DNA from: Escherichia coli
GTDB lineage: Bacteria; Pseudomonadota; Gammaproteobacteria; Enterobacterales; Enterobacteriaceae
Assembly (NCBI GenBank): GCA_902500055.1
Contig: GCA_902500055.1_4131.1
Length of the DNA: 64,000 nt
Reading direction: 5' to 3' (one strand)
Made by a program: the position numbers and the translations under genes. Positions 16,824 through 52,547 of this stretch are shown here, one piece after another. The notes below the pieces were generated by a model, which saw only the letters and a list, made by a program, of their open reading frames with translations, did not search any database and was not told the DNA's origin. The first letter of the stretch is position 1. The number at the start of each line of letters is the position of its first letter.

Positions 16824-17272
16824 TCTATACCTTCTGGATCTTTACGAAGTTCTTCGAAATCCAAATAAAATCGAGGACAGTTAACACTCTTTAAGTACCA
16901 CATAATAACTAATGCTTCAAGTACTTCATCATCGTAAACAGTACTGTTTTGGAAGTAATACTCTTCACTATCCCACGGACCTTCCAGTACTTCATAATTC
17001 AAAATTAATGGTTTTTTGCGATTAATAAAACGAATGCTACCATTTTCAACATAACTAATAAATTCTGCATCTCTATTGTATTCAGAAAACGATATAGGAC
17101 TATTGGAATTCAACCCAAGAATAACCCTTACACCAACGGAGTTATTATACATTTCATCCTTGTAGTAGTTGCCGTTCTCGGCTTTGTACACTTCTTTGAA
17201 CTTTCCTGCCTTTATATCGTCAAAGTATCCATGTAGTTCTTTTGCTTTTTCAAGAGCACTTTGTAATGACAT
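16820..17272 (-). CDS. famA subfamily A1 paralog
   Basis: 150 aa; N-term MSLQSALEKAK; core SEEYYFQNSTVY; tail VIMWYLK. Confidence 0.65.
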   Translation of the reverse strand: MSLQSALEKAKELHGYFDDIKAGKFKEVYKAENGNYYKDEMYNNSVGVRVILGLNSNSPISFSEYNRDAEFISYVENGSIRFINRKKPLILNYEVLEGPWDSEEYYFQNSTVYDDEVLEALVIMWYLKSVNCPRFYLDFEELRKDPEGIE

Positions 17273-43705: not shown

Positions 43706-43963
43706 TTATCTCATAGATCTATGCCAACAATTACGCGGTTGACGTTTAAAAATACTATCATGATCCTCCTGGCAAGTTATGCAGTACTTACACCCCTTAA
43801 CGACCTGGCGGCGATTCTCAGGGATTTTATCGCCGCAGTCGAGGCAATGTATCAGTGATTCTATTTGTGCGTTAATTTGCGTTCTAGCGTGGTTAACAGC
43901 AGCCTGAATCACTGCGTTAATCTCGTCTTGTTCGGCCCCATCTTTCGCGAATCCTACAGCCAT
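43706..43963 (-). CDS. TraR/DksA-type C4 zinc-finger protein
   Basis: 85 aa; CLDCGDKIPENRRQVVKGCKYCITC (CxxC...CxxC). Confidence 0.5.
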   Translation of the reverse strand: MAVGFAKDGAEQDEINAVIQAAVNHARTQINAQIESLIHCLDCGDKIPENRRQVVKGCKYCITCQEDHDSIFKRQPRNCWHRSMR

Positions 43964-44164
43964 TATTTTAACCTCATTATAAAAATACTATAGTACTGTA
44001 ATGCGACAATAATATTACTTGTTCTTACTTTTTCCAATCCACATGATACCACATATTCATTACCATATGTGCGGAACGATACACCATGAAAATTTTTATA
44101 CACTTGCACTACTAATCATAACCTTTCGTCTAACCAACTGCATAGAATTATACTACTTTACGCA

Positions 44165-44205
44165 AATTGATCAAGTATTGATCAGATCATTTTTGATCAA
44201 TATTA
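44165..44205 (-). promoter_or_regulatory. cluster of TTGATCA palindromes (4 GATC sites in ~40 bp) in a leader
   Basis: AAATTGATCAAGTATTGATCAGATCATTTTTGATCAATATT. Confidence 0.4.
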
Positions 44206-44293
44206 TACAGTTACATTTGTGCACCCTATGGGTTAGTGACGTTCTCGTCTTGATGTAAGTATTATGCCAGTACTGGATGATATTGTCAATAGA

Positions 44294-44491
44294 TTATTTT
44301 AATTTTTTTCTGTCATTGATTAATGCTTTCAGTACTATACTAATGATTTGCAATGATTCATCAATGACTATAAAATTATTTTCTTTCATTAGATGATAGT
44401 TACCATTGATTGTATATTCTAAGGAGTACTGTTTACGTTTAATTTTTGATAATGTTTCTATTTGTTTTTGTACTGATTTCATGCTAATCAT
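44294..44491 (-). CDS. hypothetical protein
   Basis: 65 aa. Confidence 0.45.
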   Translation of the reverse strand: MISMKSVQKQIETLSKIKRKQYSLEYTINGNYHLMKENNFIVIDESLQIISIVLKALINDRKKLK

Positions 44492-44596
44492 TGGTAAACG
44501 TCCTGTAACGCATTCTAACGAGATAAACGGTTGAGTACTGGCATTGTATAGGGTAATGAATTAAAGCCCACCAGCGTTAACCAGTGGGCTATAATC

Positions 44597-52373: not shown

Positions 52374-52547
52374 ATACCCCATGACAACAGCTAACCCACC
52401 GGGTGCACAATTGTAACTATACTAAACTAATTTTTCTATAGATACACTCCCGCACCCTATGGGCTACGGCTTATCTGCCAATGAATACATTATGCCAGTA
52501 CTGACAAAATAAGTCAATACCGGCAATTGTAAAGATTTGTAAACTGC

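Follow-up and report, generated by a model that had tools for sequence, protein, structure and literature searches.

What do four GATC sites crowded into 30 bp upstream of a DksA/TraR-like gene do in a jumbo coliphage, and which protein, if any, reads them? An initial annotation of the 64,000-nt stretch analyzed here (hereafter, the window) had placed these sites, as three TTGATCA palindromes, in a long leader, and had read them, depending on the host, either as Dam methylation targets and SeqA binding sites or as an operator array. The four sites are indeed present, starting at 44169, 44180, 44185 and 44195, as is the TTGATCA triplet (44167, 44178 and 44193, representing three of the five copies in 64 kb), and the quoted 41-nt string AAATTGATCAAGTATTGATCAGATCATTTTTGATCAATATT is found at 44165-44205. 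Comparison with related phages indicates that the cluster is a genuine, conserved cis-regulatory array. It also suggests that the Dam-site and operator readings are compatible, since the units of the array look like Fis sites made of Dam sites.

Genomic setting of the GATC cluster

The window derives from a jumbo coliphage, an Asteriusvirus (121Q/PBECO4-like, Rak2-type). The region shares 97-98% identity with PBECO4, SP27, JP4 and BAU.Micro_ELP-22, and ~90% with 121Q-type phages. The hosts of this phage group are E. coli and Salmonella, which are Dam+, SeqA+ and Fis+, so that the GATC sites of the cluster are Dam substrates in these hosts. Phage vB_Ec-M-J has an annotated direct terminal repeat of 21.5 kb, with the homologous stretch ~12 kb into it, and we infer that the cluster likewise lies within a direct terminal repeat of ~21 kb. 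Such terminal repeats were experimentally confirmed in fEgEco12 (PMC13070987). All genes of the region are on the minus strand, most of them with their own consensus TTGACA-N16/17-TATAAT promoter; a tRNA scan of the window found none.

The next tightest group of four GATC sites in the window spans 153 bp, as compared with 30 bp for the cluster. Such clustering has a probability of ~0.003 under random placement of the 137 GATC sites in 64 kb, and of ~0.012 against the denser background of the terminal repeat (85 GATC in 21.5 kb). Window-wide, GATC is depleted (137 observed vs 200 +/- 12 expected). The inferred terminal repeat (34800-56350), with its 85 sites (3.9 per kb), is at expectation, whereas its flanks carry 45 sites in 34.8 kb and 7 in 7.6 kb, ~0.4 of expectation, indicating that the avoidance is a property of the main genome and not of the early/terminal-repeat region. 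GATC density, which had been put forward as a means of deciding whether the cluster is meaningful, therefore cannot serve as the sole arbiter: the local density is at expectation, and yet the cluster is conserved (see below).

The Dam-family methyltransferase of this phage group is encoded elsewhere in the genome than in the window, where tblastn with E. coli Dam detected no homologue. In phage Sharanji, gp542 is a 173-aa N6-adenine methyltransferase of the Dam family (PF05869, E = 7e-32; stretch L199, 20316-20837); a second annotated Sharanji "methyltransferase" (WNN14829) had no Pfam or PDB support.

Another tetranucleotide, GCGC, is absent from the window (0 vs 42.9 +/- 7.1 expected from dinucleotide shuffles), with CGCG (48) and GGCC (42) occurring at normal frequencies. 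GCGC is also missing from all other Rak2-like stretches compared (0 vs ~23 in 30 kb of Sharanji; 0 vs ~10 in Hallingskeid), a pattern suggesting that the clade as a whole avoids a nuclease or restriction system specific for GCGC.

The 331-bp cassette and its promoters

Judging from its distribution among related phages, the presumed leader is an accessory, dispensable cassette. Alignment revealed that positions 43962-44292 (331 bp) constitute an insertion/deletion difference between phages, bounded by a 10-bp direct repeat (Table 1). This segment is carried by 27/36 related records and missing from 7. In G17, phAPEC6 and Sharanji, which do not have the cassette, the DksA-like gene directly overlaps the upstream 65-aa gene; G17 and phAPEC6 have a single copy of ATTATTTTAA, and the flanking genes abut.

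The cluster does lie 5' of the DksA/TraR-like gene, as first described, but not in a simple long leader, because a 48-aa gene intervenes. It is the predicted promoter of this conserved gene that the cluster overlaps, and the gene separates the cluster from the DksA-like gene, whose ATG shares bases with the small gene's stop codon (TAATG). Comparison among phages argues that the 48-aa ORF is a real gene, previously overlooked.

Two minus-strand promoters were predicted in the cassette. The -35 hexamer of P2 (TTGATC, 44174-44169) contains one of the GATC sites, and P2 is predicted to drive the small gene together with the overlapping DksA-like gene. The leader that follows P1 contains an SD-like GGGTG and then ATG-TAA within its CTAACCCATAGGGTGCACAAATGTAAC portion, and over 52 nt it has 87% identity to Erwinia phage Hallingskeid. 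A candidate promoter on the plus strand (TTGATC-N17-TATTAT, 44178-44206) was dropped, as it is not conserved in the 121Q-type and Hallingskeid-type alleles.

Table 1. Sequence features of the cassette and its surroundings (positions in the window)
Feature	Position	Strand	Basis or remark
DksA/TraR-type C4 zinc-finger gene	43706..43963	-	Pfam PF01258, E 2e-11
Left ATTATTTTAA copy, 10-bp direct repeat	43962..43971		Cassette bound
48-aa gene, GTG start (121Q gp293, phrog_38664)	43963..44109	-	ORF and comparison
Predicted sigma70 promoter P2, TTGATC-N16-TATAAT	44147..44174	-	Promoter scan, 10/12 matches
Unit 2, intact 15-bp box GATCAAGTATTGATC (gene strand GATCAATACTTGATC)	44169..44183		Promoter-proximal six bases are the P2 -35, TTGATC
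Unit 1, GATCATTTTTGATC, 14 bp in the window	44185..44198		Center at ~-52 of P2
P1-unit leader, hairpin GACGagaaCGTC, then CTAACCCATAGGGTGCACAAATGTAAC	44205..44254	-	One of ~10 copies in the window
Promoter P1, TTGACA-N17-CATAAT	44261..44289	-	Promoter scan; member of the repeated "orphan" promoter unit
Right ATTATTTTAA copy	44293..44302		Holds the stop codon of the upstream gene
Upstream 65-aa gene (121Q gp292, phrog_36844)	44294..44491	-	ORF list
Orphan units, minus strand	36483, 39233, 42244, 44232, 45629, 52463	-	Repeat copies
Orphan units, plus strand	50476, 52395, 54334, 54550	+	Repeat copies

The orphan unit to which P1 belongs occurs in ~10 copies, all of them inside the inferred terminal repeat. 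It is composed of a strong sigma70 promoter, a short hairpin with a covarying stem, and then YTARCCCAYNGGGTGC...TGTATCTA. The YTARCCCAYNGGGTGC element is followed by (A/G/T)TG TAT CTA, with mini-ORFs of 1-14 codons, and the -35 is often located within a GC hairpin. Several units have no gene ahead of the next promoter, and those at 52395(+) and 52463(-) converge without an intervening ORF; these elements could be small RNAs or regulatory leader cassettes. Independent metagenome contigs (L013, L014, L016, L017 and L073) end 100-165 nt upstream of the small gene, in or beside the repeated P1 unit, which fits assembly breaks at that repeat.

The hexamer AGTACT is present in 272 copies in 64 kb vs roughly 20 expected at 34.5% GC (for example, at 44268, 43687, 44705 and 45713), with CAGTACTG occurring 65 times in 64 kb and GTAC having an observed/expected ratio of 1.6. 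The motif is found within the spacers of promoters (..AGTACTGTATAAT) and in intergenic TTCAGTACTGAA palindromes, and is also enriched in the non-repeat 30-kb Sharanji stretch (99 copies).

Two phased 15-bp units at the predicted promoter P2

In its canonical layout, the cluster is composed of two 15-bp GATC-N7-GATC units separated by one base, with the pattern T-GATC-A-(A/T)5-T-GATC-A and GATC start-to-start spacings of 11, 5 and 11 bp. These boxes cover the -35 hexamer and the upstream region of P2, a predicted early promoter, from about -59 to -29. Unit 2 is identical in JP4, SHEFM2K, SD-2_S15, SP27 and PBECO4. Unit 1 is 15 bp long in 5/5 close relatives, reading GATCAAAAAATGATC on the gene strand; its counterpart in the window is GATCAAAAATGATC, the result of a private 1-bp deletion at 44189-44194 (A5 instead of A6 on the gene strand, as compared with the same five phages). 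This deletion shortens one spacing from 11 to 10 bp, giving 10, 5 and 11 bp in the window and leaving its unit 1 out of frame, and could represent either a natural regulatory variant or a homopolymer sequencing error. The 8-bp palindrome TTGATCAA occurs twice in the window, both times within the cluster.

Pairs of such units are found at the same promoter in diverged phages. PBECO4-type and 121Q-type DNA are ~65% identical at the 48-aa gene, with mostly conservative changes in the protein; the Hallingskeid-type lineage was represented by nine distinct alleles. Each of the three lineages keeps two GATC-N7-GATC units at P2. Unit 1 is centered at ~-52 in all three, and unit 2 is positioned over the -35 in the PBECO4/window-type, just after the -10 in the 121Q-type, at about -3 (or +1) to +12, and around the -10 in the Hallingskeid-type. 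The -35/-10 pair at the equivalent position is TGGATC-N16-TATAAT in the 121Q-type, with an orphan GATC in its -35, and TTGACT-N17-AATAAT in the Hallingskeid-type, whose unit 2 reads GATC-AATAATT-GATC. In the Hallingskeid-type alleles, the GATC spacing stays at 11 / 31-33 / 11 and a fixed 27 nt separates the last GATC from the start codon, with free variation in the spacer bases and in the spacer between -35 and -10. Across lineages as well, the spacer bases vary and the 11-bp register is fixed. Two phased units in every lineage, the second of which has been relocated, are a signature of selected binding sites.

The boxes thin out in the more distant members of the gene family. They are present upstream of the genes of the E. 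coli phages, the Hallingskeid-type phages, and the homologues P0009 (first half-sites), P0010 (unit 1 only) and P0012 (unit 2 only), and no boxes were found upstream of homologues P0013, P0016, P0017 and that of phage CBB. Two variants have lost a GATC: L073 O2, in which TTGATC became TTAATC, and L204 O1, in which TGATC became TGTTC. In L204 and L205 the first half-site, TTGATCAA, is kept and the second half has decayed.

Scanning viral contigs for this pair-of-pairs pattern yielded 121Q as the only relevant match. The other matches were rejected, being collagen-like coding repeats (GSKGDQG) or unrelated 11-bp tandem arrays, and a scan with TGATCAANNNNTGATCAA was uninformative among the matches listed. 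Unrelated IMG/VR contigs (L025/L062, L039/L045, L052, L041, L033 and L072) carry non-coding arrays in which GATC recurs strictly every 11 or 20 bp, such as (GATCAATCAGT)x8, and TTGATCAAAAAATGATCAGA repeats beside a -10-like TATAAT; these could be iterons or operator arrays made up of Dam sites.

Given the conservation of GATC-N7-GATC units at one promoter in three diverged lineages, the operator-array reading is supported in a general sense. The boxes are probably protein-binding sites that modulate P2, and sequence comparison points to host Fis, gated by Dam, or the product of the 48-aa gene as the factor that most likely controls P2 through them.

Methylation-gated Fis binding as a candidate mechanism

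As the best explanation for the boxes we tentatively propose binding of the host nucleoid protein Fis, gated by adenine methylation, on the strength of the base pattern of the units and of an analogous site in a transposon (see below). Fis would bind both boxes on the predicted P2, and this binding would be gated by N6-adenine methylation of the GATC half-sites, for which host Dam, and possibly also the phage Dam-family enzyme, would be responsible. In the window-type arrangement, a protein on unit 2 would cover the -35 and should occlude or remodel RNA polymerase binding. The output of P2 would consequently depend on both the growth state of the host, through the level of Fis, and the methylation state of the phage DNA. 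We infer the use of P2, the binding of Fis, its dependence on methylation and the sign of its effect from the pattern described here.

High-affinity Fis sites are characterized by a G/C at +/-7, a Y-R step at +/-(3-4) and an A/T-rich center, as well as a T/A at +/-8, with G at -8 being inhibitory and T at +4 disfavored (PMC4784862); a consensus of GNtYAaWWWtTRaNC was also reported (PMC2816674). Every intact unit, both unit 2 of the window and those of its relatives, displays all of these hallmarks. C-A and T-G steps are found in every intact unit, with no T at +4 and no A at -4, 4-5 of the 5 central bases are A/T, position -8 is T except in 121Q O1 (C), and position +8 is A in most. The 14-bp unit 1 of the window lacks the 15-bp Fis core, which has G at -7 and C at +7 as its bounds. 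Intact units score 13-15/15 against the consensus. Matches of at least 14/15 occur in the window at the background rate of AT-rich DNA (8 observed vs 8.8 in Markov simulations), and so the support for Fis comes from the conservation across lineages and not from the match itself.

The Fis hallmarks explain the T before and the A after each GATC, and also the exact 11-bp register. In addition, the two GATC-losing variants, L073 O2 and L204 O1, still display every hallmark, and two clearly decayed units do not. Identical boxes occur in phages even though their neighboring small proteins have only 29-35% identity, a situation that fits a conserved host factor better than a co-evolving phage repressor. 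However, neither the A at -6 nor the preference for C over T at -4 is required by Fis, and yet GATC is nearly invariant. Something specific to GATC (Dam, SeqA or another protein) must therefore also act, and the invariance points to the involvement of Dam. Further arguments weigh against Fis: a protein that reads the TGATCA palindrome would explain the same flanking bases, the persistence of the TTGATCAA half-site in L204 and L205 is not predicted by a 15-bp Fis unit, the adjacent gene encodes a protein with a DNA-binding-like fold, and unit 1 of the window itself is out of frame.

The 48-aa protein as an alternative regulator

The main rival to Fis is autoregulation by the 48-aa protein. This protein is basic, and its four beta strands and C-terminal helix form an AP2-like fold, in which the beta sheet packs on one helix and which matches solved AP2 domains; among the structural matches, the best is to a DNA-bound AP2 domain. 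No paralogue was found in a six-frame translation of the window. Homologues of 53-62 aa (29-35% identity) are encoded by Erwinia phage Hallingskeid and several metagenomic contigs, and an exhaustive profile search added 13 further homologues of 47-74 aa, each a stand-alone protein. Pectobacterium phage CBB has an unannotated 48-aa homologue (MRVLKSHNDIIFATYGDCYMVKKGRMKIV...) in its terminal repeat, between gp042 and gp043 (16897-17043 of the record; 443-589 of L211), preceded by a plain TTGACA-N17-TATAGT promoter with no GATC boxes. In BFVD, the same fold was found in uncharacterized small proteins of RaK2, pEa_SNUABM_47 and AmPh_EK52; tblastn with homologues P0011 and P0018 did not recover the RaK2 homologue detected by structure.

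It is possible, if rather unlikely, that this protein binds the TGATCA(A) boxes as dimers or as one-face pairs and represses its own P2. The coupled DksA-like gene would then also be limited, and Dam methylation of the boxes could modulate the binding. The position of the gene, the fold of its product and the confinement of TTGATCAA to the cluster within the window all favor such autoregulation. On the other hand, proteins that do not bind DNA, a capsid protein domain among them, match the fold as well, and a Foldseek search of the protein against PDB returned nothing significant. Nor could a sequence-level link to AP2 be detected: the protein had no Pfam match at E <= 10 and no AP2 match in a PDB profile search, hhalign against plant AP2 domains gave a probability of 9.7%, with no significant link, and membership by sequence in neither the AP2 nor the RHH family was found. 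Autoregulation is further weakened by the occurrence of identical boxes beside proteins that are only about a third identical, by the box-less genes of the four distant homologues (P0013, P0016, P0017 and CBB), and by the finding that no residue pattern distinguishes the box-bearing from the box-less family members.

Direct methylation control and other alternatives

Dam and SeqA might also control P2 directly, with no other specific protein, if methylation of the -35 GATC altered RNA polymerase affinity and/or SeqA sequestered the promoter; in the latter variant, SeqA dimers would occupy the one-turn GATC pairs on hemimethylated, post-replication phage DNA. SeqA is known to prefer GATC pairs that are about one turn apart on the same helical face (PMC2691817). 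The 7 bp between paired GATCs produces just such an arrangement, and the 11-bp spacing within each canonical unit agrees with the demand for at least two same-face GATC sites within ~1-3 turns. Direct control is also consistent with the almost invariant GATC core, the GATC in the -35, the Dam+ enterobacterial hosts and the Dam-family methyltransferase of a relative, and the strong avoidance of GATC outside the terminal repeat argues that the cluster sites are not there by drift. We nevertheless consider this explanation improbable. Dam and SeqA need only the GATC, which leaves over the conserved T before it, the A after it and a center rich in A/T, and the variants that have lost one GATC kept everything else. 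Conservation thus extends beyond GATC to the flanks and center of the units, and it is these flanks that the SeqA reading of the initial annotation, taken alone, misses.

That the cluster has no selected function in regulation, being either a chance or decaying remnant of the cassette or a packaging or replication signal (P1 pac-like or oriC-like), appears quite improbable. It would agree with the dispensability of the cassette, missing from seven related records, with the frame-breaking deletion in unit 1 of the window, and with the box-less distant homologues; the packaging variant would also agree with the clustered TGATCA hexamers of P1 pac. Against it, the units have been retained in lineages whose surrounding DNA is ~35% diverged, the position of unit 2 has changed, and the cluster is always on a promoter. 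A P1 pac-like site and a replication origin were ruled out by the position of the cluster, ~12 kb inside the 21.5-kb terminal repeat and not at a terminus, by its layout as a single cluster and not two flanking a cut site, and by its dispensability.

Finally, it is very improbable that the units act as an RNA element, with the self-complementary TGATCA forming a 6-7 bp hairpin per unit in P1 read-through transcripts and altering their stability or translation: hairpins do appear at both units in the MFE fold of the P1 transcript (the 145-nt leader has z = -2.8), but the cluster alone has z = -1.6 and AU-rich stems of 6-7 bp, the stems are invariant with no covariation, unit 2 precedes the P2 start in one lineage and follows it in another, and an Rfam search of 43800-44500 at permissive thresholds yielded nothing below E = 1, only chance-level matches.

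Discussion

To our knowledge, very little is known of the regulation of the dozens of tiny early genes that reside in the 20-kb terminal repeats of Rak2-like phages. The Asteriusvirus and CBB literature that we examined mentions only general sigma70-like promoters and methyltransferases, and the cassette, the protein family and the boxes all appear to be undescribed. The locus therefore provides a concrete case, in which a dispensable 331-bp cassette places a DksA/TraR-type polymerase modulator under a predicted promoter with conserved, phased GATC boxes.

Although doubtful, two switches of wider interest can be envisaged from the sequence. In one, methylation-gated Fis would tie the DksA-type modulator and its 48-aa AP2-fold partner to the growth state of the host and to the methylation of incoming or replicated DNA; in the other, the 48-aa protein would be a minimal AP2-like repressor with a methylation-sensitive operator made of Dam sites. 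If either is true, the 331-bp unit would amount to a self-contained, portable cassette for regulation, moving from one Rak2-like phage to another. Were the boxes Dam-gated Fis sites, the phage would read growth phase and methylation, both of them host signals, at a single promoter. A link to Fis would make biological sense, Fis and DksA being the two classical regulators of ribosomal RNA promoters. Should the 48-aa protein bind the boxes instead, it would be among the smallest sequence-specific regulators known, with an AP2-like fold. The natural alleles provide ready controls for such models, including the 11- vs 10-bp spacing, the lineage-specific positions of the boxes, and the phages that lack the cassette.

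Comparison with known systems

Several known systems resemble parts of this array. P1 pac is composed of clusters of TGATCA/G hexamers and undergoes Dam-regulated cleavage, and in both cases several TGATCA hexamers, each a Dam site, are found within ~40 bp of a coliphage genome. In P1, however, two clusters flank a cut site at which packaging starts, whereas the cluster described here is single, interior, located on a promoter and dispensable.

Autoregulated repressors of the MetJ/Arc type likewise bind short palindromic boxes in helical register on their own promoters, and ApiAP2 proteins bind paired short motifs (PfSIP2, PDB 6sy0), AP2 also being the best structural match of the 48-aa protein. 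Unlike these regulators, the phage protein has only 48 aa and no AP2 or RHH membership by sequence, and its distant relatives are box-less. The GATC pairs bound by SeqA in oriC sequestration and in lambda pR activation are, like those of the phage units, about one turn apart on the same face; SeqA, however, ignores the flanking bases, and the phage site has no origin context.

A GATC in a core hexamer, as in the -35 of P2, is also a feature of the Dam-sensitive promoters IS10 pIN, the IS50 transposase promoter, dnaA P2 and P1 cre (the transposase cases are summarized in PMC3347997). The predicted P2, in a Dam+ host, shares this feature. The GATC sites of those promoters are single or irregular, whereas those of the phage form strictly phased pairs with conserved flanks, and these properties point to an additional binding protein.

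The closest parallel is the inside end of IS50/Tn5 (GATCAGATCTTGATC; sequence verified in 232 plasmids), which, like the phage boxes, has a 15-bp GATC-N7-GATC core in which the Fis hallmarks are built from Dam sites, and which shares with the window the 11-mer TTGATCAGATC. Both are found in mobile or accessory elements of enterobacteria. The IS50 site differs from the phage boxes in having a third GATC in its center and a G/C-richer middle (3/5 A/T), and, being a transposon end, it affects transposition, whereas the phage boxes are on a predicted promoter. Weinreich and Reznikoff reportedly found in 1992 that Fis binds this inside end only when it is unmethylated. The IS50 inside end would thus represent a precedent for methylation-gated binding of Fis at the phage boxes.
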